Assembly: GCA_965178125.1 (NCBI GenBank)
Contig: OZ237759.1
Coordinates: 806,001-870,000 of the forward strand
Direction of reading: 5' to 3'
DNA length: 64,000 nucleotides
Origin: Bilabrum cf. latius
Lineage: Eukaryota
Positions 8,768 through 53,095 of the stretch are shown one piece after another (the first letter of the stretch is position 1; each line of letters starts with the position of its first letter). The position numbers and the translations under genes are program-made. A model generated the notes under the pieces. The model did not search any database and had not been told where the DNA came from. It was given only the letters and a program-made list of their open reading frames with translations.

Positions 8768-9433
8768 TTAAGTGGATGTCTTAACCTTAGACTTCTATTC
8801 TTTTAATTGCTTTCTTTTAAGTCTTCGTCTTTCGTTTATCTTGTCTTTATTCTTGTGATAGTAGTCAAGAGAATATTTTTTTAGTTTTTCTTTATTATTT
8901 TCTTCGTACTTTTTATGATTTTCTTTTATTTTGTCTCTATTTTTGTCTCTATACTACTGCATCATTTCTTTATTATTCGAATACTTTAGATTTTGACGTT
9001 CATTTATAATATGTCTATTCTTTTCGGCGTATAGTCTTTGCTTAGCGACTATATTGCCTCTATTATCATCATAGTATTTTCTCCATCTTTTCTATCTCTA
9101 TTCTTTTGTCTCATTGTAATACTCTTTTCTAGTTCGTCCTGCAATACACTTATTGACACATTTATATTTCCTGATATACCCTCCTTCAATCTTGCCTAAC
9201 TCTTCTCTATCTTTGCACGGACATTTTTCTACTAATTCAATTTTTACATCACCTAAGTCATAAATAATGAATGAAGTAATAAAAGGATATTCTCCTTTCT
9301 TATAATTCTTATAGTCTTTTGTGTGTCCTCCCTTTCTCTAGCTCAATGTCTAACAAGTAGAGCCATAATATACTTTTGAAGGATCATTAAGTGAGTAAAG
9401 TCTGTATATCTTTGCATTTGAGAAATTTACCAT
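8768..9433 (-). CDS. GIY-YIG endonuclease (221 aa; absent from ORF track)
   Basis: MVNFSNAKIYRLYS...VYIGSTC[TAG]TLS[TAG]RKGGH...IELVEKCPC...IEGGYIR...CVNK, followed by a charged helical tail; TAA stop. Confidence 0.9.
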
Positions 9434-9531: not shown

Positions 9532-11187
9532 ATGTCAAACAAAGGCAAGACATACACTAGAGGTAAAATATCATACACGTACGGTGATAAGCCAACAAAA
9601 AATCAAAAAGATAGTGATGATTTAGACGCCACTATTAAGGGACTACTTGATAAAGGGTTTGAAGAGGTGCCAACCACCAAAGCTAGTATTAAAAAGCTAC
9701 CTTTATACTCTTATATATCGTACATCTCAAATATCAAGGGAAAGCCACTATTTAGAAGAGGTGGGGTAATTAACTCAATATAGAAGGATGGAGACTATTT
9801 TACCTTGTATAACCTAATAAATAAAGTTCATTTTAGTGTTCAATAGTCTAACCTTGTTCGCCTTTTTTATAAGATGACTAAAGCTTAGACAAAAAAACTT
9901 AATAAACCAACCGGTAAATTAATAGAAATAGAAGACAAACCAAAGAAAGACGAATTTAAATATAAGCCAATATTAAAGAAACTATATTATGAAGAAGGTA
10001 ATGTAGTCAGTCGTGATGCGTTATATGACCTAGCTAGACAAAAAGATAGGAGAATAAAACGAAGACAAGTTGAAAAGTGGTTAAATGGCCAAATGCTACA
10101 CTAGCTCACGAAAAAACGACCTAAACAGTCAGCAGTAAGTTCTTTTGTACCTACTAAGCCTTTCTCAATTTACGCATTGGACTTAATAGACATGCAAAAG
10201 TATTCAGACACTAATGACGGCTATAATTGGATATTAAATATAATGGATATATTCACAAAATACCTATGGAGTATTTCATTAAAAGATAAGACATTAGTTA
10301 ATATAATTCGTGAGATGAAGAAACTATTTAAGAAACCTAATTGGAGAAAACCGACTGTTATGTTAAGTGATAATGAGTTTAATAAAGAGGCATATATTAA
10401 ATTTATGAATGACAATGACATAAAACCACTATTCACCATCGCAGGAAATCCATAGTCTAATGGTGCAGTTGAAAGACTTAATAGGACTATAAAAGAATAG
10501 ATTAGAAAAGACTTTGCTATTAAGAATGACAGTGATGGTGTTTGGCATACGTCATTATAGAGACTAGTAAGAGCTTATAATAAGAGAAAACACAACACTA
10601 TAGGAATGTCTCCAATAGAAGCAATGAAACCTGAAAATTTAGAAGTAGTTAGATCTAGAATTGAAAATAAGAAATTATCAAATAATTTTGACGGGAATGA
10701 TAAAGATCTTAATGTAGGGGATAGAGTTAGAGTATTACTTGAGAAGAACAAGTTTAAAGGGAATTTATTCAATTGGTCTAGAGAAGTCTTCACTGTTAGA
10801 TAGAAGACCAAACCAAGAAATCCTAAGTAGAGGATTAAATATAAAGTAATGGACAAAGAGGGAGAACCTCTTACTGGATTCTTTAATGCTTCACAGTTAT
10901 AGAAAATAGACAATGTAGAACACGAAGATAAGGTAAATGATGACATAGACAAGGAAAGTGAAGAGCCTGAAATTGATAATGTTGAAGGTTTAGAAGTAGA
11001 ACCAGACACAATAGAGAAGTTTTTAGATAAAAGACAAAATAAAGATAGACTTATTGAATACTTAGTCAAATATAAGGGATATTCTAATAAGTTTAATGAA
11101 TGGATTACCCGTAAGAAATTAGAATAGGATTATGGGAAAGACCAAATACGACCACTTGCGAAAGACTATTCTGATAGATAGAGATAA
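9532..11187 (+). CDS. Retroviral-type (rve) integrase with C-terminal chromodomain (551 aa)
   Basis: DLIDM...DIFTKY...SDNEF...P[TAG]SNGAVERLNRTIK DDE core, YNKRKHNTIGMSP, VGDRVRV, chromodomain IEKFLDKR...EYLVKYKGY...NEW; a single frame once TAG is sense. Confidence 0.95.
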
Positions 11188-12751: not shown

Positions 12752-13388
12752 TTATATGGAATAGCCAAGGTCTAGAGTCGAACGAAGCTTATCGTGAAGC
12801 TATTCGTAAGTATTATAAATGTAATAGCTAGAAGGGTTCAACTCTTTGATATAAGAGTTACGGTCTTCTAACATAGACTTCTATTTATCTACTTTCTAAT
12901 TCTTTAAAGTCTTCTAGAATAGTGAATTAGATGGAAGACATACAACTATACTTTCTTTTTTAAATAACTCATTAGCTAGACTTAACTCTTTAGTAAAGAA
13001 TATTACTCTCTTCTCGCTACCTTCATTCAACCAGTTATCTTTTACCCATTGAAGGGCTTCTTTACTGGCTTTTCTATTAAGTATATTATAATTACCCCAA
13101 TCACTTTTTAACTTACATTCGTCTAGTTTCATAAGTAATTCGGGCTCCTAGACATATACTCCTAGAGTACTATCTAAATCAACAAGTAAACAGTCTTTAG
13201 AACTAGACCGTAATATTTGACAAGCGGTAGACTTACCACTACCTTCAGGCACACAGATACATATTTTTTTACGTTTATGTAAAGGTTTATCCCATAACCA
13301 CTACCAACAAGACATACCACCAGAGTATGCTAGAGGTAGTAAGACACTTAAACCTCCTACAACGACACTGCTTGAACTGATTCCATCC
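12752..13388 (-). pseudogene. Virophage P-loop NTPase/kinase-like gene (212 aa) with start codon split by the Ngaro insertion
   Basis: ICICVPEGSGKST and LLVDLD; joining 17877 to 13388 rebuilds AAAATG GAT GGA (MDG...) in frame to TAA at 12752. Confidence 0.75.
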
Positions 13389-16300
13389 TAATGCTAACGC
13401 CGAATGGGGTTCGGGGTTGATGTGGCGATGCGTTCGAGACTCGAACACAGGCTCCGGTCTACCAACGCGAGGTTGCAACCGCCAGTGCGACCAGCAGCTT
13501 GCGAGGCATTCCCTCGTCTCCTTCCTTAGGGAAGGGGGCGGGGCAGCGCGGCAGTGGCCGTTCCGGCTCATGCCGTTGTTTTGTTTAGTATTTATGTTCG
13601 GTTTGGTGCTCACACGGGTAGTGCTTAACGCCGTGTCAACTATCGCGCGTGTCCATGTGGGTCCGTTCGGCCTACATCGTGCATCCATCCTCGGCCTACT
13701 TGGCGCTCCAGTGGATCCGAACCAATATTTACTTCGATGTGATCCATCTTTCTCGGCACATCGATGGGACTTCGGTCCGTTGGGCTCGGCTGCTGCTTGC
13801 GCCACGGTCTCCCGGGTGTGTGCTCGCCGATGGCATTTTCGCGCGATCTCTGCGTCCCTCCCTTTCGTACTTGTTCCTACGCACGGCCATGCATGTAGAA
13901 ACATATTCAAATGGTTCGATCTTACGGTTTTCCGACGACCCAGCCTTTCCGTTGGCGAGGCGCGCTCCGCTTTTCCGGTCGCACCTCGAAAGCAACCACT
14001 TTCGGCCAGATCAGCCATCGTACCAGGATACAGCACGATTTGCACCTATCGAGTGACTGATCATTTGAATTGTGCAGGGTGGGCACGTAGTCAGCTTGGA
14101 CTCCATCGTCCTCTGGCTGCCGACGACAGCAGGCTCGGTGAGCCTTCGTCATCGTCCAGACAACCCTGCAGCTCGCACCAGGCGTGCGTGCAGGAGGTCG
14201 AAGCGAGCAGCGCGGTGTGGCGCAGCTCGTAGACGGAGGCCGGCCTGGAGCCTGGTCGGTTGACGCAGCATCAGTGGTGGGCTGGTGCTGTGTCTTGCGC
14301 GGGTGCCGGAGCTTGGCCACGGTGGCCTGCTGCTCCCTGCGCCCCACGCGCAGTTCCTCCCGCTCCGGCGGATGAGTCAGCAGTGGCACGTTGCCACCGG
14401 CTGACGACGACAGCAGGCTCGGTGAGCCTTCGTCATCGTCCAGAAAACCCTGCAGCTCGCACCAGGCGTGCGTGCAGGAGGTCGAAGCGAGCAGCGCGGT
14501 GTGGCGCAGCTCGTAGACGGAGGCCGGCCTGGAGCCTGGTCGGTTGACGCAGCATCAGTGGTGGGCTGGTGCTGTGTCTTTGCGCGGGTGCCGGAGCTTG
14601 GCCACGATGGCCTGCTGCTCCCTGCGCCCCACGCGCAGTTCCTCCCGCTCCGGCGGATGAGTCAGCAGTGGCACGTTGCCACCGGCTGACGACGACAGCA
14701 GGCTCGGTGAGCCTTCGTCATCGTCCAGAAAACCCTGCAGCTCGCACCAGGCGTGCGTGCAGGAGGTCGAAGCGAGCAGCGCGGTGTGGCGCAGCTCGTA
14801 GTCGGAGGCCGGCCTGGAGCCTGGTCGGTTGCCGCAGCATCAGTGGTGGGCTGGTGCTGTGTCTTGCGCGGGTGCCGGAGCCTGGCCACGATGGCCTGCT
14901 GCTCCCTGCGCCCACGCGCAGTTCCTCCCGCTCCGGCGGATGAGTCAGCAGTGGCACGTTGCCACCGGCTGACGACGACAGCAGGCTCGGTGAGCCTTCG
15001 TCATCGTCCAGAAAACCCTGCAGCTCGCACCAGGCGTGCGTGCAGGAGGTCGAAGCGAGCAGCGCGGTGTGGCGCAGCTCGTAGACGGAGGCCGGCCTGG
15101 AGCCTGGTCGGTTGACGCAGCATCAGTGGTGGGCTGGTGCTGTGTCTTGCGCGGGTGCCGGAGCTTGGCCACGATGGCCTGCTGCTCCCTGTGCCCCACG
15201 CGCAGTTCCTCCCGCTCCGGCGGATGAGTCAGCAGTGGCGCGTTGCCACCGGCTGACGACGACAGCAGGCTCGGTGAGCCTTCGTCATCGTCCAGAAAAC
15301 CCTGCAGCTCGCACCAGGCGTGCGTGCAGGAGGTCGAAGCGAGCAGCGCGGTGTGGCGCAGCTCGTAGACGGAGGCCGGCCTGGAGCCTGGTCGGTTGCC
15401 GCAGCATCAGTGGTGGGCTGGTGCTGTGTCTTGCGCGGGTGCCGGAGCTGGGCCACGATGGCCTGCTGCTCCCTGCGCCCCACGCGCAGTTCCTCCCGCT
15501 CCGGCGGATGAGTCAGCAGTGGCACGTTGCCACCGGCTGACGACGACAGCAGGCTCGATGAGCCTTCGTCATCGTCCAGAAAACCCTGCAGCTCGCACCA
15601 GGCGTGCGTGCAGGAGGTCGAAGCGAGCAGCGCGGTGTGGCGCAGCTCGTAGACGGAGGCCGGCCTGGAGCCTGGTCGGTTGCCGCAGCATCAGTGGTGG
15701 GCTGGTGCTGTGTCTTGCGCGGGTGCCGGAGCCTGGCCACGATGGCCTGCTGCTCCCTGCGCCCCACGCGCAGTTCTCCCGCTCCGGCGGATGAGTCAGC
15801 AGGGGCACGTTGCCACCGACTGACGACGACAGCAGGCTCGGTGAGCCTTCGTCATCGTCCAGAAAACCCTGCAGCTCGCACCAGGCGTGCGTGCAGGAGG
15901 TCGAAGCGAGCAGCGCGGTGTGGCGCAGCTCGTAGACGGAGGCCGGCCTGGAGCCTGGTCGGTTGACGCAGCATCAGTGGTGGGCTGGTGCTGTGTCTTT
16001 GCGCGGGTGCCGGAGCTTGGCCACGATGGCCTGCTGCTCCCTGCGCCCCACGCGCAGTTCCTCCCGCTCCGGCGGATGAGTCAGCAGTGGCACGTTGCCA
16101 CCGGCTGACGACGACAGCAGGCTCGGTGAGCCTTCGTCATCGTCCAGAAAACCCTGCAGCTCGCACCAGGCGTGCGTGCAGGAGGTTGAAGCGAGCAGCG
16201 CGGTGTGGCGCAGCTCGTAGACGGAGGCCGGCCTGGAGCCTGGTCGGTTGACGCAGCATCAGTGGTGGGCTGGTGCTGTGTCTTTGCGCGGGTGCCGGAG

Positions 16301-17876
16301 CTTGGCCACGATGGCCTGCTGCTCCCTGCGCCCCACGCGCAGTTCCTCCCGCTCCGGCGGATGAGTCAGCAGTGGCACGTTGCCACCGGCTGACGACGAC
16401 AGCAGGCTCGGTGAGCCTTCGTCATCGTCCAGAAAACCCTGCAGCTCGCACCAGGCGTGCGTGCAGGAGGTCGAAGCGAGCAGCGCGGTGTGGCGCAGCT
16501 CGTAGACGGAGGCCGGCCTGGAGCCTGGTCGGTTGCCGCAGCATCAGTGGTGGGCTGGTGCTGTGTCTTGCGCGGGTGCCGGAGCTTGGCCACGGTGGCC
16601 TGCTGCTCCCTGCGCCCCACGCGCAGTTCCTCCCGCTCCGGCGGATGAGTCAGCAGTGGCACGTTGCCACCGGCTGACGACGACAGCAGGCTCGGTGAGC
16701 CTTCGTCATCGTCCAGAAAACCCTGCAGCTCGCACCAGGCGTGCATGCAGGAGGTCGAAGCGAGCAGCGCGGTGTGGCGCAGCTCGTAGACGGAGGCCGG
16801 CCTGGAGCCTGGTCGGTTGACGCAGCATCAGTGGTGGGCTGGTGCTGTGTCTTTGCGCGGGTGCCGGAGCCTGGCCACGATGGCCTGCTGCTCCCTGCGC
16901 CCACGCGCAGTTCTCCCGCTCCGGCGGATGAGTCAGCAGTGGCACGTTGCCATTGACTGACGCCCCCTCGTCAGGCTTGCTCCCTACATCCAGTAGTTTG
17001 GAGCACCCTGATTTCCCGCTTTGCGGATGAGTCACTGCGGGTATATTCTCCGGCAGCTGACGATCTCTTGGGCCACATGGTTCCTCGCCCAGGAACAGGC
17101 ATGTAGACACAGTGGTAGCCACTCCACTGGCCTACTTGCAGGTTCCCAATCGACTGGTTCTTCCACGGATGTCGCCGTACGTACCTCCTTTGGCACAACC
17201 CGACTGCATAGTCGATGAGTTGTGTCAACGGACTCAACGCCGGCGCGGTTTCGTCCCTGACCTACGGTCGTCGACTCGACTACCGCTATCATCGACTGTT
17301 TCCACACGTCCTACAGATGGTCCCGACAACCAGTCAACTTCAATGATCAAGGCATGGCGATGTAAGACTTGGCTGATAGTGGAGCGGACGCGCAACCGAC
17401 GGTTCTGGTGCTTTCCAACCGACGTCGGCGCGCGGTCTGCTCAGATTGGCCATGCTTTGCCCATGTCTTGATTGAACTGGAGACGAAGTGTGTCGAGTAA
17501 GCATCGTTGCATCATAATGCTAACGCCGAATGGGGTTCGGGGTTGATGTGGCGATGCGTTCGAGACTCGAACACAGGCTCCGGTCTACCAACGCGAGGTT
17601 GCAACCGCCAGTGCGACCAGCAGCTTGCGAGGCATTCCCTCGTCTCCTTCCTTAGGGAAGGGGGCGGGGCAGCGCGGCAGTGGCCGTTCCGGCTCATGCC
17701 GTTGTTTTGTCCCACCCTCCTCTCCCTGGTTTGGCTGATAGTGGAGCGGACGCGCAACCGACGGTTCTGGTGCTTTCCAACCGACGTCGGCGCGCGGTCT
17801 GCTCAGATTGGCCATGCTTTGCCCATGTCTTGATTGAACTGGAGACGAAGTGTGTCGAGTAAGCATCGTTGCATCA
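13389..17876 (+). mobile_element. Non-autonomous Ngaro-type (tyrosine-recombinase retrotransposon) element nested in the virophage
   Basis: GC-rich island with split direct repeats A1 (13389-13584) ... B1 (17369-17514) A2 (17515-17710), 20-bp spacer, B2 (17731-17876); no TSD; no recognisable RT, RNase H or recombinase ORF. Confidence 0.88.
14121..16952 (+). repeat. Ten near-identical tandem repeats of about 284 bp
   Basis: GACGACAGCAGGCTCGGTGAGCC recurs every 283-285 bp. Confidence 0.95.
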
Positions 17877-22527: not shown

Positions 22528-23595
22528 ATGTCATTATCATACGATGAAATACCAAATAGTCATTTAGTTGCTTTAAGAGAATACAAGCACAAGAAGAGGA
22601 ACAAAAGCGTCTTTTTTAGTGAAGATGTAGGGGAAAAAGTCATAACTCCAGAAGATATAAGTGATGATTTACTTGAAGAGTACTATGGAAAGAGAGCAAT
22701 TAAATATGAGAAGAATAAAAAAGCATTACGTGAAGAGATGTGTAAGTTAGTGAATGGAAATAAAAAACTAGTTAGAAAGACTAACGAGTTAAGAATAGAT
22801 GATAAGAGTTAGTTTGAAATAGTCCCATTCTTTGATGATGAGACCAAAAGACAAATACACTATTTAAGTGGTTAGGCTGGTGCTGGTAAGTCTTATATTG
22901 CTAAGTCTTTACTCAAGTATTATCATATGTTCATTCCAAAGAAGAGGGTTTTAGTCATTACACCAGTACAGGAAACAAATCCAACTTATTTAAAATATGG
23001 TAATTTTATTGATATTGATAAATTAGTAGCAGTAGATAGAAACGATAGTTATGATGACTTAATGAGGAAATATAAAGAAGAAAAGATATTCTTTAGGTAG
23101 GAAAAGAAGTCATTAGAACCTCATGAATTAATTAAAAGAGAGTAAGAGATAGAAAGAATGAAACCAACAAGTAAAGACAAGACTAAGGCATCATTTACCA
23201 CTACTCCATTGTATGAAGAATGGGCAAAATAGGGTCCTTCTGTGGTGGTATTTGATGATTATGAAGCCTTAAACGGGGATAAAAAGTAGAGGGCGTTATT
23301 CTTAATTAAGCGTATAGGTGAAGTTGGAAGACATAGCTCAACAAATATGATAGTTATAAGTCATTTAACGAATGATTATGCGAATACTAGGTCAATAGTC
23401 ATGGAAAGTCATAATATTATTTTATTTAAGAGAAATCTATGGAAATTTAGCAAATATTTAATGAAAGCATATTTAGGATTTGATGCAAGTCTTATAAATC
23501 GTGTTTATAAATTGTTTGGAGAAGGTAATAGATGGCTATGTATTAATAAGACGTATAATTTTATCACTTGTCCTAAATAGATGTTCGTATATTAA
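22528..23595 (+). CDS. FtsK-HerA/A32-type packaging ATPase; one internal TAA at 23143-23145
   Basis: Walker A YLSG[TAG]AGAGKS, Walker B VVVFDDYE, arginine finger GRH, ISH motif; first gene of the morphogenesis block. Confidence 0.88.
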
Positions 23596-23614: not shown

Positions 23615-24163
23615 ATGGATATAACCACTGCATTAAGTCCTGAAGAGGTACAAAGACTATACTTTACATTTACAAAGTAGCATATACCAGTTATAATGTA
23701 TGAAGAAATAAGTGATACTAATAACATCAGACAATTTCTAGATGAAAATCCTTTATTTGTCCTTTATTATCCTAACTTAGTAGAAGGAGCAACAATGAGC
23801 GGTCATTATACTGCGGTCATATTTAATAAATCAAAGAATACTCTTTATTTTTGGGATAGTTATGGTCAATTACCTGATACTCATATTCCAGTCGTAGGAG
23901 GAGTCATAGACCCATAGAAGCTATATGATAGAAGTAGTCTTCTAATAGATCACGTATTAGATGCTGGTATTAATGTTGACTATTCAAATCAAAAGAATCA
24001 ATTAATATCAAATAACTCTGCCACATGCGGTCGGTGGAGTGTGCTCAGACTTCTCTTTCATAATTTAACGAATGATTAGTTTAATAGTCAATTAAAGAAG
24101 GCTTTTAAAAAGTATGGAGGAGGACTAGATAATGATGAACTTATTACTTTGATAATTAGTTAA
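23615..24163 (+). CDS. Adenain-like cysteine maturation protease (182 aa)
   Basis: SGHYTAV, YFWDSYG, Q...SATCGRW catalytic His/Asp/Gln/Cys order. Confidence 0.93.
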
Positions 24164-24523
24164 TATGACATATACCATAAATTTTTAGATATTGAAAATT
24201 GATATCTATAAGGTGGCCATATTAAAAAGACTAAAATATAAAAATGAATACGGGTACGCGCCCAGAATTGCGGAAATATATCTTAATATCCTAATATATT
24301 ATCGCAATTTGGGGCGCTGGTATTATACTATATCTTAAGATACTAAATTTTTAAAATTTCGGAATATTGGATTTTTTCAATGAGTCAAATAATTAATAAA
24401 AACTTTTTTAAAAAGTCATTACGGGTAAGCGCCCAGAATTGCGGAAATATATCTTAAATAGCTATAATATTACCGCAATTTGGGGCATTAGACAAGACTT
24501 ATTTTCTTGATAAATGTTATAGA

Positions 24524-25450
24524 ATGGTAGAGATTCAAGAACCAGATATCTTTTATATTAACTCATAGGATACTATAACATCTATTAATACTAATAGACC
24601 AGTATCAATACATGAACAGCGTCAAGGTAATATCTTGACAAATTCACAAAACTACTTATTATCACTTGACCGATGGACTCTTAAATGTCGTATTCCTTTA
24701 TTTGTAGCAAGTAAAGAAGTAAAGAATAGCGATAATTAGTCAATTTATAAGATGTCGTTTGTGAAGAAGAGTGATGGAACTACTTACACTCGTAATATTG
24801 TCTTAACTAAGCCGTTATATTATAGTCTTAAGACCCTATCTAATGAATTTAATAATACTCTTAGTGATTTATGTGGAGATGCTAGTATTCCAACTGATAG
24901 TATAGTATTTGAATATCACGGTAAGACTAAAACATTTAGTTTCACCCGTTTAGCCGCTTTTACAAGTGCGTGGACTTTAAGTTTTAACTTTCCTTTATTC
25001 TCTATCTTTGAGACATTTGAATATGACGATGAAGGTAAAGACATCAAGAGTGATACTTATATAAATCTATTAGATGGATATAATGAATAGAGTGCTTCTA
25101 CCTTAGATTAGTTTCCTACTATGGAGTATATTCAAATTATTAGTCCATCACTTCCAATACTTCCAGAATTTACGCCATCATATAAAAGTACATCTAGTAC
25201 AGAGATACAAAGTGAAAATATCTTAAGTGATTTCAAGATAGACAATACAACAGGAACGAGTTTTATTAAAATAAACTTTAGTAGTGGAGGAAATCATAGA
25301 TGGCAATAGTTCTATAGATCAGCATTTAATAGTTATAGTATAGTACCGTATTTTAGAGATACTTTTGGAAACTTATACGAAATACCCTTTACTTTTGGAC
25401 AAGGACTTAATATAAAAGCTCTATTTAAAAGTAAAAAGTTAATAACTTAA
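24524..25450 (+). CDS. Minor capsid (penton) protein (308 aa)
   Basis: EQRQGNILTNSQNYLLSLDRWTL...IPLF, SLPILPEF, NILSDF, IKALF; lies between protease and major capsid gene. Confidence 0.85.
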
Positions 25451-25492: not shown

Positions 25493-27379
25493 ATGTCTGA
25501 TATGGATAATGTACCTGTAGCAGCACAAAGCAAAGTCGTAGATGACGTCTCAGAACTACCAGTAACTCAAATAGCTGACGAAAAACTCAACTTTGTGGGT
25601 GATAGTCAAGCTATTACTCTAGGAACTACCCTTGGATACTCTTCCAAGTTTCAAAATCACTACGAACCAGATGGTGGTAACTCTAGCGCAACTAATGCAT
25701 TTAGAAGTAATTATACTTTCGTAGTGCCATCAAATCAAGGAATGACTGACAGTAATCCCCGTCTAAGAGTTTCATTTGACGTATACATCTATGATAGTTA
25801 GAACAATGGAGCAGTAGCTCAAACTGATATCGTCAATAAGGTAGCCCCTTCTACATTTATGGTAAATTCAATGATCACAAGTTCCACAGTTAAAATGGGA
25901 GACTTATCTCGTAGTTCATCACCTTATCAATTAGTCAATTTAATAGCTAGAAGTCTTGACCGTGCCACTCTAGCACAAATAAGTCCTGTCTTTTAGGCTG
26001 ATAACACTTGGGAATTTAATACTGCCGCAAATGGTCTTGCTAAGTCTGTCCTTCAATGGGGTGTAAATGATGATAGTATTATGGAAGCTCGCGGTCCTGG
26101 TAAGAATTACCGCGCAACACTTGAAAAAGTGGATGCTAATACTCCAATACCTAATAATAATGTAACACCAACTCAAGACTATGTCAAATTACATATTGAA
26201 ATCTCTGAAGCACTTCTTGCACGTCCTTTCCAATATATGATGGGTGGTAATGCTAGACCTTTTGTTGATCATCCACAATTAAATGTTAATTTACAAATGA
26301 GAAATAACTTAATTGATAAGATGTTTAATACTTCAAGTGATTGGAATGGAGACTATGCTTTTGCTTTATCCGATTGCTAGATCCATTTTGATGTCTTTAC
26401 TTATAATACTCATCTTAACTTCTTGAAGAAAGTACCTAAACAAATATTCTACAACTCTGTTGACTTTGAACTACATGAAGAGCCTAAACTTGATAATCCT
26501 ATCACTACTAAAGGTGTCCATACTTTTAATAATTATCAACTTTAGACTTGCCCTTCTTGGTTTGCTGTGTGCTTAGTTGATTCTCAATATGGAGAAGCTA
26601 GTGGTACACCTCATAGAACACTTGCCATTAACAATATTAAAGTACAACTTAGGTCTTAGGGTTCTATTTTAGGAGAACTTACACAAGACGATATCTTTAG
26701 ACTTAGTGAAAGAAATGGATCAAATAGTGAGTATGCTTCTTTTACTAACTTAGATGTAACTGTAGGAGGTGCTTCTAAAGTATACGGATCTAATGGCTGG
26801 CTCTTATTTAGACTTAGTGATTTAAATACTCCTGAAACTATTCAAAGCAACAGTGCTGACCCTATTAGTATTCGTGTTCAAGTAGCCTATGACGAACCCC
26901 CAACCGCTGCTATGTCTCAAGGATATAAAGCTCAATTATTCTGTGCCTATGACAAGATTATCGTGAATACTAGAGGTGCCGCTATTGAATGGCGTGAAGA
27001 TAGTGCTTCTGTTGACCCTGAGAAAGTGGCTAAACCTTCTAATTATACATTTTCTAATATGAACTACTCTAAGAACGTATTAGGTGGAAGACGTCGTAAA
27101 GTGATGCAATTCTTTAAGAGAGCCTTTAACAAAGCTAAAGACTTAGGACGTAAAGTGGTAGACTTTGGAAAGAAAGCTAAAGCTAAATTTGATAAAGTGA
27201 AACCAGCTCTTCGTAAAGCAAGGCAAGCAGTAAGTGAATACTTACCCGATGAAGTGAATGACTTAGCTGAACGTGTTGGAGCAGGTCTTTTAACTAGTGG
27301 TGGAAGTCTTTTGACCAGTGGAGGTAAGAAATTAACTAAGGCTCAACTTATGAAACTTAGAAAGTAGCTCAATATGTGA
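25493..27379 (+). CDS. Virophage major capsid protein (628 aa)
   Basis: Single frame with TAG sense; ISEALLARPF, NNYQL[TAG]TCP, LAINNIKVQL...SILGELTQDDIFRLSERNG resemble virophage MCP motifs; basic C-terminal extension after VLGG. Confidence 0.92.
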
Positions 27380-27566
27380 GTCGTAAATTATTAATTAATA
27401 TTTAAAAGTTATAAATATTGACTAAATTTAAAAACTCAATACGGGTACGAGCCCAGAATTGCGAAAATATATCTTGAATAGCTATAATATTACCGCAATT
27501 TGGGGCGGTCATACCTTAAGACTAGTTTAAATATTACGCCAAAAAATATCCACTATATATATAGTT

Positions 27567-29479: not shown

Positions 29480-32278
29480 TTAATTTTGTTGTTCTAGTGG
29501 ATCATTATCCTCATCAACAAATAAAGCGGGGTCTAAGTCAACCTCTATCTCTTCATCGGGTAATTGAACCTCTTCATCATCAACAAATATATCTACTTCA
29601 CGAGTCTTTTTCTTGTTAGACCAGATATATTCCATCTCATCAATAATATCCTAATTAAATTCTACATCATAGTTAATTTTCTTTTTCTTACAAGTCATAA
29701 ATATGTCTTTCCCAAACATTGATTTATATACTTTAAGTATTTCGTAATAAAGACCTTTATCAGTGGATAAGTCAACTTTACTTCTTCTTTGGCAGTCATA
29801 CACTGTCCTATATTCATCTGTTAAGTCTTGATCTAATACTTTCTTTTTGATATTATAATCAAGATTAGTTCTTTTAAGACCTAAAGTATCAATCATCTTA
29901 TTAAGTAAGACTAATTTTCTAGAACTAGACTTAGCATTGATAATATCAAACTCGCCTTTATTAATTGCTTTCACAAGTAAGTGCTTATCATCTTGTCTAA
30001 AGAATTTATTGAAATTAAATAAATTAGATAACTTACCTTTATTAATAAAGTACTCTTTGTATTTGTCAATATCACCTTCATCTAAGTCTAAATATTTATT
30101 AATCTTCTTGACATTAAGACAATTAATATCAAAATTTTCAAGTTGTTTTTCTTTAATGGTATCTTTGATTTCTTTATCCTTACATCTGGTGATCTTAACA
30201 GATAAATCATAAGACACGTCATAACCGGTATCAATTAACTACTTGATCATATGTAATTTAGGGTTTGTCTTATAACAATCTACCTTGTAAAGATAATTAC
30301 GATATAGTTTCTTGAATATGATTTTAACTTTGCTCATTTCTTCTTCTACTTTGTCTTCTACTTCTACCTCGTTGAAGTCGGGATATGTATCACTGACAAA
30401 TTTAACTAATTCTTCGTAGTCTTTTAAAGAGGTAGCCATAAAAGATTTAACTTGTGAAAGACTTTCATATGTGCTAGATCGTCCTTTCTAGTAATCAAAA
30501 AATATAGTGATATGTGATGGGTTTCTACATCTGTTAAGCTATTGAACCATTTGGGGAGGTGTGATAGTATGACCTTTGAAATAACCAAAGACTGGTCTAG
30601 TCATAGTGCTATCTATCCCGTAAATGACTTTAGGTGAGAAGATAATGATATCAAACAAATCCATATCATAGTCTTTGTCTTCGCTTTCTGCTGTAAGTAT
30701 TAAGATTTTATTTAATTTCTTATCTTTCTCGTTATCTATAATTTTAAGACTAATTAACTCATTGATTATATCAGCTTTTGTCTTACTATCACTAGCAAGC
30801 ATAAACTTCTTGTGTTTCATTAACTCATCTCTAAAAGTCTGTTCGTCATTAACAAATACAGTTTTGGTGCCCTTGAACCTGTTTCTGTCATTCCTAATAT
30901 ATTGATAATCTAATTTTAATAATTCTAAGAAATATAGAGCATCTTGAGATAAGTCAGCATCTGCTACTATGAACTACTTACAAGTGGTAAGAGCACGAAT
31001 AAGAGTAATGAAACTCATTGGTCGCCTACCATATAAAGTCGTAGAACTTAAACAGTGTTCTAAGATACTATTAAACTCATCTAAAAAGACAATATAATCC
31101 TTAAAGTTATAATTGCTAAGACTAACAATACTTTCAGGAGTAATAACAATACTATCACCCTATTTGTATTTATGGTCTTGATAGAATTTAGTTGATTTTG
31201 GAAGACTACGCATCTATTGCTTACCTAATAAAATACGACTAACAACTGATAAAAAGCTGTCATCTACTCTATTAAATAAATCATTAGCAGCAGTTGTCTT
31301 TCCAGAACCAGCCCCCGACTTAACGGCATAGTTGATACCTTTCTTAAAGAATTTAATATAACGACCTTTGTCGTCAGCAGTCAAATATCTACGGTCAATC
31401 TTCTAATTGACTTTCTTGACTACTTTATTCTTGAATATCTTGTATCGATAATATAGGCTAAGTCGTTTCTTTTCACTATCTAACTAGTTAAAGAACCATT
31501 CAACACATTGAAAAGTGGAATTTTGTAATAATCGAGTAAAAATTATCTTGTTCTTAGTCGACTAATAGCTTTCTACGTCTTGTTTGCTCCATTCATCAAA
31601 TATATCATATACCTTATTACCATCTACTGGATTTAAGTATTTAGCGATATAACTTGTAGCTCTACAAACTAGATGCCAGTTATATGAATTAGAATAATAC
31701 TCTTTACCTAATTGATATAAGTATTGTTTGTATTCTTCGGGTTTAATCATATAACGGTAGTCTTCAGCTGTAAGTTGTGGTGAATAGATATTTTGTAGTA
31801 TGAACATCTTGACGTCAGTTGGTATTCTTTTCACGGATGTCTTTTGTATTAGTTCGTATTTCTTACCGTTGATAGAGCTAGGAGGACACATGATAAAGCT
31901 ATCATTTGTGATCACATCTATATGTTCTTTTCTATTTACTGACCTCTTACTAAACTCTTCTTCATACTTAAAATACAAATGATATCCATTGGGAGACTTG
32001 ACAGTGTAAGTATTCATCTCTTGAATAAACTTATCAACACTACCATATTCCGCAATAAACTTACCATTTTGAAATTCAGTTTTATTTTTCTCTTTTTCAC
32101 AATCTAAGTCAAGGACAAAGAAACCTGCACGTCTTCCAGTAAGTAATCCAACATTAAGATTTGACTTTCTGGTGATAAGTTTAGTAGATTCCAAATTCTA
32201 CCAAGACTTAATAAGTGGTTGTTTAGAGTTGTGAGCTATTGAGAAATAAACAGGGTTAGATATGTGTTCGGTCGTCAT
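29480..32278 (-). CDS. Primase-polymerase + PriCT-like + UL9/origin-binding-type SF2 helicase fusion (932 aa)
   Basis: KQPLIKSW, NVGLLTG, FVLDLD, TVKSPNGYHLYF (prim-pol); FDEWSK; KSGAGSGKTT, VSRILL, VFLDEFNS, ADADL, FSPKVIYGID, Q[TAG]LNRCR; four track ORFs share one frame. Confidence 0.88.
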
Positions 32279-32823: not shown

Positions 32824-34356
32824 AAGTGGTATGAGTTAGTGAATATGTAAAATTGAATACGGGTGAGCGCCCAGAATTGCAAACATAATTTTCTTGATAC
32901 TTATATATTTCCGCAATTTGGGGCGGTCATATCTGGAGATACAATTTGGGGCGGTCATATCTGGAGATACAATTTGGGGCGGTCATATTTATTATTAGTT
33001 ATTTTAAAATATCTCGTCAAGTGGTTAAGTCTTTTTGTGATATCCCGTTAAGTGGTCAATAAAATGAACGGTAAGTCAAAAAAATTAATCAAAATAAAGA
33101 AGTAGTTGATTATTAATTATTGAAGACACCTAAGCGCCCAGAATTGCGGACATAATTTCTAGAATACTTATATATTTCCGCAATTTCGGGCCGTCATTTC
33201 TGGACATTTAATATAGCACATACTAGAAATATCTTTATTACAAAATTACACCTCTATAAGATAACTATGTCAAAATTAACAAAATATAAAACTCAATACA
33301 CCTACGCGCCCAGAATTGCGACAATATATCTTAATATCCTAATATATTACCGCAATTTCGGGCGCTAGTATTATACTATACCATATTTAATTATCCTATA
33401 TTTTCCATTTAATCTAGTGATTAATCATTTCAAAGTAATACACTTGACATAAACCAGTTCATTGAGTCATTTTAAAGTCATCGTCAAAACATTTATCATT
33501 TTTAAGTTATCCCGCTTTGTATTCCTTTATATCATATACTCAAACAAAGGACTTTAACATATTTAAAGAATTATGAAAAATAAAAATCAATACACCTACG
33601 CGCCCAGAATTGCAGAAATATATCTTGAATAGCTATAATATTACCGCAATTTCGGGCGATAGATAAAAGAATGTATTTTTAAGGGGATACCCTTATATTT
33701 GAAGTTTTGAAGAGATGACATATAAAAGACTTTATAAAGTGATTAATATCTCCTTCTAGTTATATTTAAATATTCAATTATTTAAGTATAGATTGACAAG
33801 TAATAAAAAAAGAGATAAATTAAGTTGATATATTAGTTTAGTTTTATTTATTAATTTAAATTTTTCATTGGAAGTATTAAAAAGACTTTAATACTTCTGT
33901 CAATCTCTTTAAGTATTTATTTAGTTATTTTCTAAAGTGGTAAATGTCAATTGATACTTAAAACCAAATCATAATATAAAACTCAATACACCTACGCGCC
34001 CAGAATTGCGAACATATATTCTTAAATGACTATATATTTCCGCAATTTCGGGCGGGCATATCCTAAGACTTAGGCTAGGGATTCACTCAACAGATTAAGT
34101 AAAGTAAAGGTCTAACAGATAGACATTAACGGCGCGAAGGTATTAAATTAGGTAGATATATGAATAAATAGCTATTAAATTATTATGTTCAAGTGAAGGA
34201 CATTATGAAGGACTACGGCTTAAGATGTTGTGAAGTGGTTAATATTGACCTCTTATGTTATCCGCCAAAATGTGTGTAGTTTTTATATAAGTAAACTCTA
34301 TTTCTACTATATAGTAGAAATAGAGTTATCATAACTCCACATTTTGGCGGATAACA
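32824..34356 (-). repeat. Right terminal inverted repeat (about 1.53 kb)
   Basis: Reverse complement of the left TIR, with fewer 93-bp units and an extra short GGTCATATCTGGAGATACAATTTGGGGC unit. Confidence 0.92.
34256..34356. repeat. Right terminal hairpin (101 bp), identical in direct orientation to 5511-5611
   Basis: Base-for-base identity with 5511-5611 on the plus strand, including the asymmetric segments. Confidence 0.95.
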
Positions 34357-36663
34357 GACCTCGTCATGGCTGTGACAGCAGAGCGCTCTTTGATGCGAGT
34401 ACTGAGTACGATGGAAACCAACTTCACTGTCAAATCCCACCAGAAGATCTCCGATACGCAAGGCGGCTTCAACGGCACGCTGGATGATTAGGTATAGTTC
34501 GGATACTCCGTGGCATCCCTGGGCGATCTGGACGGTGATGGTACCACCGACATCGCAGTGGGGGCAGCCATTGATGGTGGTAGATTTATTAGTCGCGGGG
34601 CTACGTGGATCCTCTTCTTGAACACCGACGGCACCGTCAAGTCCCACCAGAAGATCTCCGATACGCAAGGCGGCTTCAACGGCACGCTTGACAATTCTGA
34701 CCGGTTTGGTTCTTCCGTGGCATCCCTGGGCGATCTGGACGGTGATGGCACCACCGACCTCGCAGTGGGGGCAGTATACGATGATGATGGAGGGGGCGAC
34801 CGCGGGGCTACGTGGATCCTCTTCTTGAACACCGACGGCACCGTCAAGTCCCACCAGAAGATCTCCGATACGCAAGGCGGCTTCAACGGCACGCTGGACA
34901 ATGCGGACTTCTTCGGATACTCTTTGGCATCCCTGGGCGATCTGGACGGTGATGGTACCACCGACCTCGCAGTGGGGGCCCGCCAAGATGGTGATGGAGG
35001 GAACAGCCGCGGGGCTACGTGGATCCTCTTCTTGAACACCGATGGCACCGTCAAGTCCCACCAGAAGATCTCCAGTACGGAAGGCGGCTTCAACGGCGCG
35101 CTGGACGATTATGACTGGTTTGGTTCTTCCGTAGCATCCCTGGGCGATCTGGACGGTGATGGTACCACCGACCTCGCAGTGGGGGCCCGCCAAGATGGTG
35201 ATGGAGGGTACCGCCGCGGGGCTATGTGGATCCTCTTCTTGAACACCAATGGCACCGTCAAGTCCCACCAGAAGATTTCCAGTACGCAAGGCGGCTTCAA
35301 CGGCGCGCTGGACACTTCTGACCGGTTTGGTTTATCCGTGGCATCCCTGGGCGATCTGGACGGTGATGGCACCACCGACCTCGCAGTGGGTGCAGTATAC
35401 GATGATGATGGAGGGCGCGACCGCGGGGCTACGTGGATCCTCTTCTTGAACACCGACGGCACCGTCAAGTCCCACAAAAAGATCTCCAGTACGGAAGGCG
35501 GCTTCAACGGCGCGCTGGGCAATGGGGACTGGTTTGGTTCTTCCGTGGCATCCCTGGGCGATCTGGACGGTGATGGCACCACCGACATCGCAGTGGGGGC
35601 CCGCCAAGATGGTGATGGAGGGGACGACCGCGGGGCTATGTGGATCCTCTTTAATGAAGTGGTATTGCCATCGCCGTCGCCGTCGCCCACCCCGAGCACG
35701 AGCCCGAGCAACAGCCCAACCCCGAGCAACAGCCCAACCCCGAGCAACAGCCCTTCCAGGTCGCCCATACCTTCAACCAGTAGCGCCCCGGCAGCCCCTG
35801 CGGACGCAGAGCCTTCCTGCACCGACAACGAGAAGAATGGCCAGGAGAGCGACATCGACTGCGGGGACGCGTCCGCCGACGGGTGTCCCCTGTGCTCGCA
35901 GGGGAGGGCTTGCGTGACCTCTGACAACTGCGCCAATGGCCTCGTATGCGCCAGCGAAAGCATGCGGTGCTCCGAGGATGTCCTCTAGGGCGGCAAGCTG
36001 ATCAACGTGAAGGGTATTCAGATATCCAGCGTGTCGACTCCCATATTCCAGGAGAGCCTCGGGGATCCGATGGGCGCAGGGGTGCTTGACGTCGCACGCG
36101 CGAAGCAGGTCACAATCGACCAGGTCGCTGATTATGAGACAGACGGTGACGGCACAACCGGATTGGGTGTCAAGGTTGACCTGACCACGACCATCCCGCT
36201 AGACCGAGATGACGAGGACCAGACGGCGCAGGCTATTATGGGCTACCTCAACGGCACCGAGCCAGATTCAACAGGGAGCACGCTGATCAACACGCTGCGG
36301 GCGGCAGCTCCAATCGCCATCGCCAGCGAGATGGGCGTGTCTGTCGCGACCGCACAGGTGGAGATCGACACGAGGCCCGTGGACGTGCAAGTAGAGGAAG
36401 CACGTGTCCCCAGCGAGCCACCGAGCGATGATGAGGACGACGGGCTGAGCACCACCGTCATCGTGGGGATCGTCGTTGGGTCTCTCGTAGTCTCGGGTGC
36501 GTGTACCTTTGTCTTCTGCTGTCTGTGGTGCGGGAAGCGCAGGAAGAAAGAAGAAGACGAGGAGGAGGAGAAAAAGCGTAAGTCGAGGGCAGAGGCTGGT
36601 ACCAAGAGCGACATGCGGGCGGCATCGTCTTCTATGCGTCCCTCCGCTGGACAGCTGGTGTGA
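34357..36663 (+). CDS. Host FG-GAP/integrin-alpha-like type I membrane protein, 3' part (interrupted at its 5' end)
   Basis: About 60-aa repeats [26 protein letters not shown] stalk, Cys-rich [16 protein letters not shown] module, TM helix, TGA 36663; TAG at 35986-35988 read through. Confidence 0.88.
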
Positions 36664-37069: not shown

Positions 37070-38899
37070 TGAATTCGAATGGTCTCTAGCGGCCCTGGGG
37101 GATCTTGCAGGAGACGGAGTTGCTGCCCTCGCTGCCGGTACCCCGTACCACGATTACGGTGGGACTAACAGCGGAGCCGTGTGGATCCTGTTCATGAATG
37201 CAGATGGCACGGTTAAGGAGTTCCAGAAGATCCCGGACACGCAGGGCGGCTTCACCGGCGTACTGGTGGATGAGGTCTTCTTCGGGTATTCTGTTGCATC
37301 GATAGAGGACCTGGATGAAGACGGCACCAACGATCTCGCTGTCGGTGCGAGCAGGGACGATGACGGAGGTAGTAGAGCTCTAGACGCGGGGCAATATGGA
37401 TCTTGTTCCTAAACGCGGACGGCACTGTCAAATCCCACTAGAAGATCCCGGACACGCAGGGCGGCTTCACCGGCGAGCTGGACGATGTGGATGAACTCGG
37501 GTGGTCGTTAGCATCCCTGGGCGATTTCGACGGGGACGGACGTGTAGCCCTTGCTGCTGGCGTCCCGTACGATGATGACGGAAGAAATTCCTTTGATCGA
37601 GCTGACCGCGGCGCTACATGGATCCTGTATCTGGGCACCGACGGCAAAGTTGATCCTCACAGAGAGGTCTCGGACATCCAGGGCAACTTCACTGGCTAGC
37701 TGCACAACGTTGATTAGTTCGGCTGGTCCGTGGCATCCCTTGGTGACCTCAACGGTGACGGAAGGACAGACATCGCTGTTGGCGCGCCTGGGGATGACGA
37801 CGGAGCCCAATATAATCAAAACAAGCTTCACGGTGCTGTGTGGATCTTGTTCGCTGCACCACTGCCATCGCCATCGCCAACACCATCGATAACCCCAAGC
37901 ATCAGCCCCACGCCCAGCAGCAGCCCCACGCCCAGCAACAGCCCCACGCCCAGCATTACGGCTAGCCCGAGCACCAGCCCCACCCCTAGCAACAGCCCGA
38001 CCCCGACCCCGACCCCGAGTAGCAGCCCCAGCAGCTCGCCCACGCCGAGCACTTCCAGCACCGACAGTGTCACGGGATTGACATGCAGTGATGGCGAGAC
38101 AAATGGCCAGGAGAGCGACATTGACTGTGGGGACACGTCTGCTGAGGACTGCTCGTTGTGCTCCTAGGGCATGACCTGCATTGTCACAGCCAACTGCGCA
38201 AGTGGACTGGTGTGCTCGGCCAACAGCACCACGTGCATGGCTCCCGTGAAGCGCAGGGGCATGCGCATCACGGTGTCCGGGACCAAGGTGTCGAGCGTGA
38301 CCACGCCCGTCTTCCAGTCGAACCTGCTGACTCCCTTCATCGCGGCCATCGAGGACGTGGCCAGAAGTGATGATGTGGCCATCGACCGGCTGACCCCGTC
38401 CTCGGATAGGAGTGGCCGCCCCCTTCAGGCCTCGGGCTCAGAGGAAAATGGTGTTCCCGCCACCGAGCTAGACTTCACTGTGACAATTCCGCAGGAGCGC
38501 ACCGACGTGGAGAAGACGAGGCAGGACATCCTGGCCTTGCTGCGGGGCACCGATACCACGTCAATGAACGAGACGCTAGTGGACGTGCTCAGGATGGCTG
38601 CACCAGCCGAGATGGCCCAGCTACTGGTGGTTGATACGACCAGCATTACCGCGGAGGTCACTGTACAAGAAGAGGACCTGCAAGTGGACGAGGCTGTGGC
38701 TCCTTCTACGGACGAGGATGACGACGAGGGAGGGGCCAGTATGGTCATCATCGTGGTGGTAGTAGTCGTCGTCATTGCTGTCATGGTGGGGGCAGCCACC
38801 TACTTCTTCAAATGCAGGGACACCAAGTCAGGGATTGCCAAGAAGGACGACAAGGCGGTCGATGCGAAGGAAGAGCATCAGGTGGCCGAGGCCGTGTGA
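37070..38899 (+). CDS. Second FG-GAP membrane protein paralogue; 1-bp frameshift near 37386, start unresolved (possible pseudogene)
   Basis: Same domain order as the upstream copy; [10 protein letters not shown] continues in a shifted frame. Confidence 0.75.
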
Positions 38900-50913: not shown

Positions 50914-51292
50914 GATATCGATAAAGTACAAAAGGTGAGGCCCATGGCGCGACGACATCCTAATCTGGTTTACGACCCCAATATAACGTAAACTTAAGTG
51001 CTCAACGAAAAGCCCAACACTTGAAGCTAGTACCGTTTGTCCTGAACGTACCTGCAGTCTATCGCCCGTGACGTAGATACTATTGTAAGATTCAACCCCT
51101 AGACTCTGCTAAGAATTGTCCTAAAGGTTCGAAAAGACTAGTCAGGCGGTAGCGTTTGCCCTGACTCGAGTTTGGTGGTCTCCTGTATCAACATGACGTG
51201 ATATGGGCCCATCCGCTTCGCATGTAAGCATACAGAACATATGTTATGACCCAAGTTTACGCTGATCTCGCAGGAACTCGTGCGTCTCTACG

Positions 51293-53095
51293 ATGGCAGC
51301 GGTTCGATTTTCAGGGCCCTCCGGTTCAGAGAGCCTTCCCGGCCCCGCCAGGAAGTTCTACCGATCCATGGTGAATGGAGAAGTGTTTGAGATCGATGAG
51401 CGATACACTGGTCTGAAGTACATAGGCGGGGGCGCTTACGGATTCGTGTGTGCTGCATAGGATGCTGTGACGAAGAAGCGCGTGGCCATTAAGAAGATCA
51501 AGGATGTTTTCAGAGATCTGACAGATGCCAAGAGGATTCTGCGAGAAATCAAGTTGCTGCGTCATCTTGGTGGACACCAGAACATCATCTGGATTCTTGA
51601 CATCATGGTGTCGCCTCAGAAGCGGACCTTCCGCGACGTGTACATCGTCACAGACCTGATGGATACTGATTTGGCCCATATTATTGCCAGCCAGCAGACG
51701 CTCTCCGACTAGCACATCAAGTACTTCACGTACCAGATATTGCGTGGCCTGAAGTACGTGCATAGCGCGGGCGTGCTGCACCGCGACCTAAAGCCCCAGA
51801 ACATCCTGTGCAACGCCAACTGCGAGCTGGTCATTTGCGATTTTGGGCTGGCGAGGGCCCTGGGCAGGAGGGGTGGGGGTGACGGGCGGGGAAAAGGGAA
51901 AGACGGCGAGGGCGAGGAGGGCGACATGTACGCGGTGGGCGACCTGACGGCGTACGTGGTGACCCGATGGTACAGGGCACCAGAGCTGCTGGCGCAGGCG
52001 AGCTCGTACGGAGGAGCCGTAGACATCTGGAGCGTGGGGTGCATACTGGCTGAAATCCTGGGGCGGCGTCCGCTGTTCCCCGGCCGCCAGTTCAAGCAGC
52101 AGCTGCAGATGATCGTGGACATGATCGGTACCCCCTCCGACGAGGAGATGTGGTTCATCCGCAACTCGGCCGCCAAGCGGGTCATCCTCAGCATGGGCAA
52201 CCGCACGCAGGCGGACTACAGCAAGATGTTCCCCCACGCAAACCCAGAGGCCGTGGACCTGCTAGACAAGATGCTCCGTTTCGACCCCAGCCGCCGCATC
52301 ACCGTCGAGGAGGCCCTGGCGCACCCCTACCTGGCCGACTACCACTACCCAGACGACGAGCCTTCTGCGCCCGCAGCCGTGCAGTTCGACTTCGATCGCA
52401 TGGGCAGGCTGAGCAAGCCCTTTTTGCAGGCGCGCATGGTGGAGGAGATGCGCGCACACATCGAGGCACACGGAAAGGCGGCCGCCACGCCAGCTGGGGA
52501 CGGGGACGCGCGGGTGGCAGCGAAGGAGGAGGAAGAGTCTGCGCGGCGGGAGGAGGAGGCTAAGGAGGCGGAGGCAGGCCGCATCAGAGCGGAGGAGGAG
52601 GCGCGCCGGGCTGCAGAGGCAGCCAGGCAGCAGGCCGCCTCGTCCGCGCTGGGGGTGCTGGGAGGCGGGATGCCCCAACCGGCCACTGCCGCTGCACCCG
52701 CGCCAGCACCATCACCAGTCCCCGTTCCGGCCCTCACGCCGGCTGGTGGTGCAGGTCCCGATGTGGTGTCCCGCCTCGAGTCAGCTCTGGACCGCAAGGT
52801 GGCCCAGCTGGAGCAAGCCATGCGCTCCACTGTGCACGAGGAGGTGGAGCGCGCCGTGACTCCTTCAAATGCTCGCTTAGATCGCTTGGAGAGAATGGTG
52901 GAGGCCCTTGCCGCAGGAATGGCGGCTGGATCGACTTCAGCCGCATCATCGGGTGCGGCGATCGGAGGAGCCGCCGCGCCCGGGCGGGGGGTGAGGTTTG
53001 TGGATACTTCGGCGGAGGCCTCCGATGGAGATGGCGTCGGCAAGCGCAAGTTCCCTGCGACGCCCCTACCGCCCAAAGGAGAGCGCGAAGTTTGA
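51293..53095 (+). CDS. Host mitogen-activated protein kinase
   Basis: [43 protein letters not shown]; two TAG read through; start approximate. Confidence 0.93.

Follow-up and report, generated by a model that had tools for sequence, protein, structure and literature searches.

The 64-kb window (64,000 nucleotides, the whole stretch of DNA analysed here) contains an AT-rich integrated virophage that carries an rve integrase. The provirus forms a block of 28,846 bp (positions 5511-34356) with a GC content of ~30%, surrounded by host DNA of 52-72% GC. Its first letters are TG and its last letters are CA, and the flanking sequence on both sides shows a 5-bp target-site duplication, GACCT, at 5506-5510 on the left and at 34357-34361 on the right (neither assigned to a strand). 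Several features of Polintons/Mavericks are present, namely an rve integrase (PF00665 plus a chromodomain), terminal inverted repeats (with a perfect repeat of 1305 nt), and a short target duplication (the 5-bp GACCT). The initial annotation had described the element as an integrase-mobilised virophage, and the integrase, the TG...CA ends, and the target duplication were all found. When we searched the neighbouring host repeats for an empty target site, the sole match was the flank itself; paralogous flank contigs from the Logan collection carry an indel at the insertion site and therefore provide no clean empty site.

A GC-rich insertion of ~4.5 kb is nested within the element at 13385-17876 (no strand assigned). 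It consists of split direct repeats (A1 at ~13389-13584, B1 at 17369-17514, A2 at 17515-17710, and B2 at 17731-17876) together with ten 284-bp tandem units. Judged by the Ngaro layout as it is generally known and as it appears in the available text of Hackl 2021, this insertion looks like an Ngaro/DIRS-like non-autonomous retrotransposon and lies outside the virophage proper, which measures about 24.4 kb without it.

Under the standard genetic code, no long ORF of the element is open, whereas reading TAG as a sense codon yields ORFs that tile the element. Recoding of TGA or TAA was rejected, since the genes open only with TAG as sense. TAG stands for glutamine in the virophage: Three of the 11 TAG codons of its primase-polymerase gene fall in alignment columns with Q in 27/29, 24/29, and 29/29 homologs, and at each of the six TAG positions of the capsid gene, the database version of the protein reads Q. 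In the host DNA of the window, a MAP-kinase-like catalytic domain contains two in-frame TAG codons (51458-51460 and 51710-51712), and a TrmO gene contains one (61322-61324), which aligns to arginine in two solved homologs. Because these codons lie inside conserved host domains, the host appears to read TAG as sense as well, and the code of the virophage appears to match that of its host.

With TAG read as sense, we compared the 21 element ORFs of at least 100 aa with Pfam and PHROGs, which left little of the coding space without assignment. The major capsid protein (25493-27379, + strand; 628 aa, six in-frame TAG) matches PF22031 (MCP_V20_C; E = 3.2e-07) at 30.4 bits, above the cut-off of 27, and is thus a double-jelly-roll capsid protein of the virophage V20 type. 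Upstream of it lie, on the same strand, a packaging ATPase-like gene (22528-23595) with sub-threshold AAA matches, which is broken by an in-frame TAA at 23143-23145; a putative cysteine maturation protease (23615-24163), so named from its place in the morphogenesis block and from a Peptidase_C57 match below the cut-off (E = 0.0043); and a putative penton (minor capsid) protein (24524-25450), which lacks a family match and is assigned from its position directly upstream of the capsid gene. The resulting order of ATPase, protease, penton, and capsid is the usual one for the morphogenesis module of Maveriviricetes-type virophages, with the ATPase and protease identified at sub-threshold level and the penton by position.

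The integrase gene (9532-11187, + strand; 551 aa, 12 in-frame TAG) encodes an rve domain (PF00665, E = 9.5e-08) and a C-terminal chromodomain (PF00385, E = 4e-07), and it also matches transposase PHROGs. Next to it lies a 221-aa relative of the GIY-YIG nuclease family (8768-9433, - strand; six in-frame TAG), which has no direct Pfam match and was recognised from PF01541 in 30 of the 120 homologs listed (122 in total). The sole replication protein found is a PrimPol (AEP) primase-polymerase fused to a helicase (29480-32278, - strand; 932 aa, 11 in-frame TAG; PF09250, E = 8.9e-14; phrog_4913 'replication', E = 7e-25), whose gene has its start ~2 kb inside the right end and points toward the interior of the element. 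[quoted passage not shown] The same search of these 21 ORFs yielded no Rep/HUH nickase and no Holliday-junction or telomere resolvase.

Opposite isomers of a terminal palindrome

At each of its outer edges, the provirus carries a 101-bp imperfect palindrome. The left unit (5511-5611, + strand), which we term 'flip', is built from an arm (5511-5529), a 19-nt segment (5530-5548), a perfect 34-bp palindrome (5549-5582), a 10-nt segment (5583-5592), and a second arm (5593-5611), which is exactly the 19-19-34-10-19 layout given by the initial annotation. A repeat search of the window showed that the right unit (34256-34356, + strand) has the same sequence and the same orientation, i.e., the two units form a direct repeat with 101 of 101 positions identical. 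The same search returned an inverted repeat of 1305 nt with 100% complementarity between 5593-6897 and 32970-34274, which overlaps the 101-bp unit in the inner 19-nt arm only. On the left, the inner inverted repeat (5612-7412, + strand) is perfect up to 6897 and picks up again at 7276-7412; it holds extra 211-bp tandem copies (6670-7277) and includes several copies of an ~80-nt intergenic motif. Its counterpart on the right (32824-34255, - strand) is perfect over 32970-34255.

Because the 19-nt and 10-nt asymmetric segments differ, the orientation of the unit is unambiguous. Relative to the inner repeat, these segments are read in opposite sense at the two ends: Going inward from either outer edge, one meets one isomer on the left and its inverted complement, here called 'flop', on the right. 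Both the exact direct repeat in the midst of inverted ends and the resulting pair of opposite isomers had been claimed before, and both are confirmed here. The outer 19 bp are common to the two isomers, so either one offers the same end to the integrase and, as had also been noted, either one starts with TG and ends with CA.

The 19-nt arm occurs four times in the 64-kb window, against 0.03 occurrences expected, and chance is excluded as the origin of the terminal 101-bp match. The predicted DNA fold of each strand of the unit has about -32 kcal/mol (z-scores of -13.3 and -13.6), and none of 200 shuffled sequences was as stable. This fold is closed by a 19-bp terminal stem, and the two terminal palindromes are thereby able to fold back and present a 3' end. 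A solo foldback or MITE copy of the unit was ruled out, as the only four arms in the 64 kb all come from the two units. Hairpins made by transposases of the hAT/RAG-like type were likewise discarded, as they would leave a few palindromic nucleotides and not a 101-bp unit.

Junctions in public reads and termini of relatives

Five public runs from two studies contain the element in the form of Logan contigs, and we compared four of them over positions 5100-6400. In each of the runs X1 and X2, a unitig matches the left junction, comprising host sequence, the arm, and the first 9 nt of the 19-nt segment, exactly. The unitig of the inner repeat starts at exactly 5593 in X1, X2, and X3. Such a break means that the k-mer at this position has more than one predecessor, i.e., that the de Bruijn graph branches there. 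In X1 and X2, a contig additionally has, directly before 5593, the 10 nt that end the 19-nt segment when it is reverse-complemented. Both types of junction between palindrome and inner repeat thus exist in the read data of two studies, while the outer border at the right end, where the unit meets the host, is known from the assembly.

The k-mer depth of the inner-repeat unitig relative to the host-flank unitig was 27x in X1, 27x in X2, and 5.5x in X5, values that are depths and not copy numbers. Moreover, the sequences that follow 5611 vary (two contigs in X1, three in X3), and in X1, X2, and X3 there is also a variant from which 5888-6201 is deleted. Taken together, the depth excess, the varied sequences, and the deletion variant indicate a multi-copy element with several insertion sites. 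The Logan contigs list no strand-switch or head-to-head joint, a class of data in which k-mers cannot separate such a joint from integrated flip and flop ends.

We also looked at the termini of relatives, using the PrimPol-helicase family as a guide. This family comprises 938 cluster representatives at E < 0.001, 202 of them at <1e-30, and its members in IMG/VR reside on viral contigs of 20-26 kb, often with the gene at the contig end. The loci examined numbered 80 from IMG/VR and 80 from metagenomes. In the IMG/VR set, 3 of 98 true contig ends (L002, L045, and L058) opened at base 1 with a palindrome of 98-102 nt, and these three lay within ~0.4-2.4 kb of the PrimPol-helicase gene. Palindromes of that size number four in all within the 1.16 Mb of IMG/VR loci, three of which are these terminal ones. 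Two of the three, each a perfect palindrome of 98 nt, could stem from an assembler reading round a hairpin or junction, or from chimeric reads. The third, at L058, is imperfect, with 31-nt arms around a 40-nt asymmetric interior in which two small hairpins are predicted; it is the closest analogue of the 101-bp unit, and its arm sequence is absent from the other end of that contig. None of the 134 true contig ends at the 80 metagenome loci carried a terminal palindrome. Terminal palindromes are thus rare among the PrimPol-helicase relatives, and the comparative support that they lend is thin. Terminal inverted repeats were found in 0 of 22 IMG/VR contigs covered end to end and in 0 of 9 larger metagenome contigs covered fully or nearly so, which makes flip and flop unscorable in any of these relatives. 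Internal palindromes of ~100 nt in L069, L140, and L134 were rejected as candidate junctions, being intergenic or of low complexity.

Searches for closer relatives gave little. The exact pattern of the 19-nt arm had no match in IMG/VR, and that of the 34-bp core had none in the JGI metagenomes; neither the single PrimPol-helicase sequence nor the capsid alignment retrieved a close relative from IMG/VR; and tblastn with the capsid protein against the phage collection was negative. A word search with the capsid protein returned the window's own protein and two Logan proteins of 86-87% identity on ~2-kb contigs, and nothing else.

End replication and its alternatives

From the anatomy of the ends, their opposite isomers, the absence of pPolB, the integrase hallmarks, and the two junction types, all of which are observed, we infer a hairpin together with its nicking, its resolution, and the enzymes for these steps. 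Hairpin-based replication of the virophage ends is in our judgment the best explanation, a plausible one that draws on one phased copy and to which we assign a probability of roughly 0.5. The integrating genome would be linear with blunt, fully duplex ends, each carrying an 'extended' copy of the ~100-nt imperfect terminal palindrome, and would be inserted by its own retroviral-type integrase. Before integration, the termini would be replicated via a fold-back intermediate, either by hairpin transfer after a nick, as in parvoviruses, or, on the poxvirus model, through a head-to-head junction that is extruded as a cruciform and then resolved. Both routes would turn the palindrome around with respect to the remaining genome, and would do so at one end without regard to the other. 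The bulk of synthesis would fall to the PrimPol-helicase, with a polymerase of the helper or of the host. As for nicking and resolution, the GIY-YIG protein, the integrase cutting after CA, or helper-virus enzymes are candidates by guess; the GIY-YIG relative is a speculative nickase, a role of a kind not known for it.

Several features of the locus fit this scheme. Opposite isomers are the expected product of hairpin transfer or cruciform resolution and not of ordinary inverted-repeat maintenance, and fold-back copying would keep the 1.3-kb repeat identical while leaving the 63-bp asymmetric interior as opposite isomers at the two ends. The whole duplex unit, the CA-3' termini, and the 5-bp duplication together fit a substrate of integration that would have been the open, 'extended' form and not a closed hairpin. 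Since pPolB is missing, another solution to end replication is needed: A PrimPol-helicase can prime internally and cannot complete the 5' ends. The hairpin would thus be the answer to the end-replication problem, for which the pPolB-encoding relatives use protein priming. The initial annotation had gone further in suggesting self-priming for want of another primer system. While the opposite isomers and the lack of pPolB speak for the hairpin part of this proposal, the remainder is too strong, given that a PrimPol-helicase is present and that PrimPol is able to start chains de novo, which makes a hairpin primer dispensable for initiation.

A single phased copy is compatible with ongoing isomerisation, with a direct arrangement that is fixed, and with one isolated inversion, and the direct orientation could in principle be the work of the assembler, with the right end being in truth the inverted complement of the left. 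Palindromes and multi-copy repeats are difficult for assemblers, the element is multi-copy by its depth, and the right host junction is taken from the assembly. The initial annotation had named such an artefact as the observation that would overturn it, and we find it very improbable in view of the reads: Independent k-mer assemblies break at 5593 in three runs, where a single junction type would have let the unitig continue into the palindrome; two of these runs contain the alternative predecessor; and the left junction is exact. Both junction types being present in reads, the two isomers are best taken as real, and one may ask whether a sporadic inversion produced them. The 63-bp interior between the 19-bp arms would then have flipped at one end, irrespective of the mode of replication, through intramolecular template switching or quasi-palindrome recombination, in the virophage lineage or, after integration, in the host chromosome. 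Short inverted arms around a short spacer, as seen here, are hotspots for template-switch inversions, and the one phased copy is not pristine, its nested insertion and the premature TAA in its ATPase gene implying time for other rearrangements. Such a course of events is nonetheless unlikely, as the 1305-nt flanking repeats are 100% identical, which speaks for a recent copying of the ends from each other, and the change is clean to the base, with no further difference in the 101 bp. The branch at 5593 also recurs in X3, a run from the second study with a different organism label, which is easier to understand if both junctions are regular in the family.

Regular junctions would equally result if members of the family always carried the unit as a direct repeat, with no isomerisation at all and with the asymmetric bubble read strand-specifically by a protein, for example by the integrase, by a factor for packaging, or by one that binds an origin. 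Fixed asymmetric ends would fit all of the contig data, as both junction types are then expected at ~1:1, and they could coexist with hairpin replication, as at the left end of minute virus of mice, which has a single orientation. The mismatches of poxvirus telomeres are bound by packaging proteins, as described in the available text of PMC8956199. Against this, fold-back passage is the only process known to keep 1.3 kb inverted and identical with the last 63 bp non-inverted, and the full-text literature searched held no precedent for a fixed arrangement of this type, so that we view it as distinctly improbable.

Returning to hairpin-based replication, we tentatively extend it to a fuller life cycle, whose odds we put below even. 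Hairpin ends like those of poxviruses and parvoviruses may here replace protein priming, and the virophage may alternate between two states, an episome that replicates through hairpins and a provirus like that of a retrovirus. The CA-ended 19-bp arm would then have two roles, as substrate of the integrase and as the limit at which the hairpin is nicked or resolved, with the nickase supplied by 3' processing through the integrase, by the GIY-YIG nuclease, or by the telomere machinery of the helper giant virus. If this is true, the frozen flip/flop pair would be the first direct footprint of a hairpin mechanism in the Polisuviricotina.

Comparison with known systems

Parvoviruses such as AAV use rolling-hairpin replication with hairpin transfer. 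Both termini of their extended duplex forms hold the complete palindrome, whose orientation at one end does not depend on that at the other. They rely on a helper to replicate, and their genomes can integrate. The virophage differs from them in being a dsDNA virus with a double-jelly-roll capsid and a PrimPol-helicase and without a detected HUH protein, whereas parvoviruses have ssDNA genomes of 4-6 kb and an HUH nickase (Rep/NS1). Among the dsDNA genomes with hairpin telomeres (poxviruses, ASFV, and chloroviruses), the likeness lies in an imperfect terminal palindrome that exists as two inverted-complement isomers, here distributed over the two ends of one copy.

The terminal hairpin of vaccinia virus is ~104 nt long. 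Going by the available text of PMC8956199, flip/flop isomers arise from hairpin formation on imperfect inverted repeats in poxviruses, and the resemblance to vaccinia virus is close: Both have an AT-rich, incompletely self-complementary terminus of ~100 nt outside a long perfect inverted repeat, in two inverted-complement isomers, and the duplex unit of the virophage has the layout of one half of a poxvirus concatemer junction (PMC8956199). By contrast, the virophage unit is known only as duplex DNA at provirus borders, with TG...CA and a target duplication, and the element is ~24 kb, integrase-mobilised, and without an identified A22-type resolvase or concatemer resolution site. A resolvase for head-to-head junctions could come from the helper virus.

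With mavirus, the endogenous EMALEs of Cafeteria, and Polintons, the element shares an integrated double-jelly-roll virus genome, long inverted repeats, an rve integrase, and a short target duplication, and with the EMALEs it further shares a low GC content in a high-GC host and retrotransposons nested inside (PMC8547959, available text). Low-GC EMALEs, mavirus, and Polintons carry pPolB, which the virophage described here lacks, and the words palindrome and hairpin have no occurrence in the available text of that Cafeteria paper (PMC8547959). [quoted passage not shown] Like those elements, ours has a palindrome at the outer edge of the inverted repeat, adjoining the target duplication, along with an rve integrase and replication genes other than pPolB; the palindrome described there measures 52 nt, as against the 101-bp unit here. 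The words flip, orientation, and isomer are absent from the text of the preprint, to which this comparison was confined; its figures and supplements might bear on the matter (10.64898/2026.07.28.741278).

These ends bear on how linear virophage and PLV genomes that lack a protein-primed polymerase replicate their termini, and the full-text literature searched contained no description of flip/flop termini for virophages, PLVs, or Polintons. An imperfect palindrome in opposite orientations on an otherwise symmetrical element is the sort of trace by which replication through a fold-back can be told from a passive repeat. If confirmed, the mechanism would connect the replication of virophages with the telomere biology of the giant viruses that they parasitise, and would mean that a retroviral-type integrase is able to use such ends as substrates. 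While the idea of hairpin priming for elements of this type was already put forward in the 2026 preprint, what is new here is a terminal isomerism like that of poxviruses and parvoviruses on an integrase-mobilised virophage.

Reassignment of TAG in the virophage and apparently in its host

In the integrated virophage, TAG is a sense codon: reading through it is the sole way in which the genes between window positions 7600 and 32300 stay open, and the ends of genes are still marked by TAA and TGA. The residue for which TAG stands is most likely glutamine, as judged from aligned homologs of the PrimPol-helicase, the 932-aa replication protein encoded at 29480-32278(-). This gene contains 11 TAG codons, three of which fall in glutamine-rich homolog columns (Q in 27/29, 24/29, and 29/29 sequences). 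No tRNA genes were found within the 64-kb window.

In-frame TAG codons were also observed within conserved domains of host nuclear genes, at 51266-53095(+) and 60569-62296(+). Two of them (51458-60 and 51710-12, + strand) lie in a MAP-kinase-like catalytic domain, and one (61322-4, + strand) lies in TrmO, where the aligned position in PDB 7btu and 1xqb holds a conserved Arg. From these sequences, the host seems to use a nuclear code in which TAG is sense. The virophage adjoins the 5′ edge of an FG-GAP repeat gene (34357-36663) that is built of 69-aa (207-bp) tandem repeats and is followed downstream by a second FG-GAP gene (37364-38899); paralogous flank contigs in the sequencing runs show that these genes belong to a family. 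The first FG-GAP repeat has two TAG codons at positions that are occupied by Y or W in paralogous repeats, and these two codons may therefore reflect decay rather than coding.

Terminal repeats and the intergenic motif

The terminal inverted repeat of the virophage runs without a mismatch over 1305 nt, breaks off, and continues at 7276-7412 / 32824-32960. This break arises from about two extra 211-bp tandem copies in the left repeat (6670-7277), which are absent from the right one (32982-33197). When assemblies of the public runs X1, X2, X3, and X5 were compared with window 5100-6400, a variant lacking 5888-6201 was found in X1, X2, and X3. Two samples with the same organism label differed in how deeply k-mers covered the terminal-repeat unitig relative to the host flank, at 27x for S1 and 5.5x for S3. 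Together, the depth differences and the variant point to variation in copy number or in strain, or to the presence of episomal DNA.

A repeat search of the window revealed a conserved intergenic motif of ~80 nt, with about 25 copies across 5790-34053 (for example, at 24407-24486, 27427-27506, and 33578-33657), in which two GC-rich inverted arms of ~13 nt enclose an AT-rich spacer of ~35 nt. Nearly all virophage intergenic regions contain it, and several copies reside in each terminal repeat. The motif may serve the transcription machinery of a helper virus as a promoter, as a hairpin terminator, or as both.

A disrupted gene, a nested element, and likeness to known systems

The putative packaging ATPase gene is split by an in-frame TAA at 23143-23145, which separates the Walker A portion from the Walker B portion, and packaging may be defective in this copy. 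The virophage also harbors a nested GC-rich element (~13385-17876; ~67% GC) with split direct repeats of 204 nt and 146 nt in the order A1 ... B1-A2-B2, whose interior consists of ten 284-bp tandem units and lacks a long ORF. This element resembles a non-autonomous Ngaro/DIRS-like retrotransposon, similar to the retrotransposons that have been reported within Cafeteria EMALEs (PMC8547959).

Palindromes of 98-102 nt terminate IMG/VR viral contigs that encode the same PrimPol-helicase family, namely at L058:1-102 and at the right ends of L002 and L045. In the L058 palindrome, arms of 31 nt enclose an asymmetric 40-nt interior that is predicted to fold into two small hairpins. The predicted terminus would be T- or Y-shaped, reminiscent of AAV.
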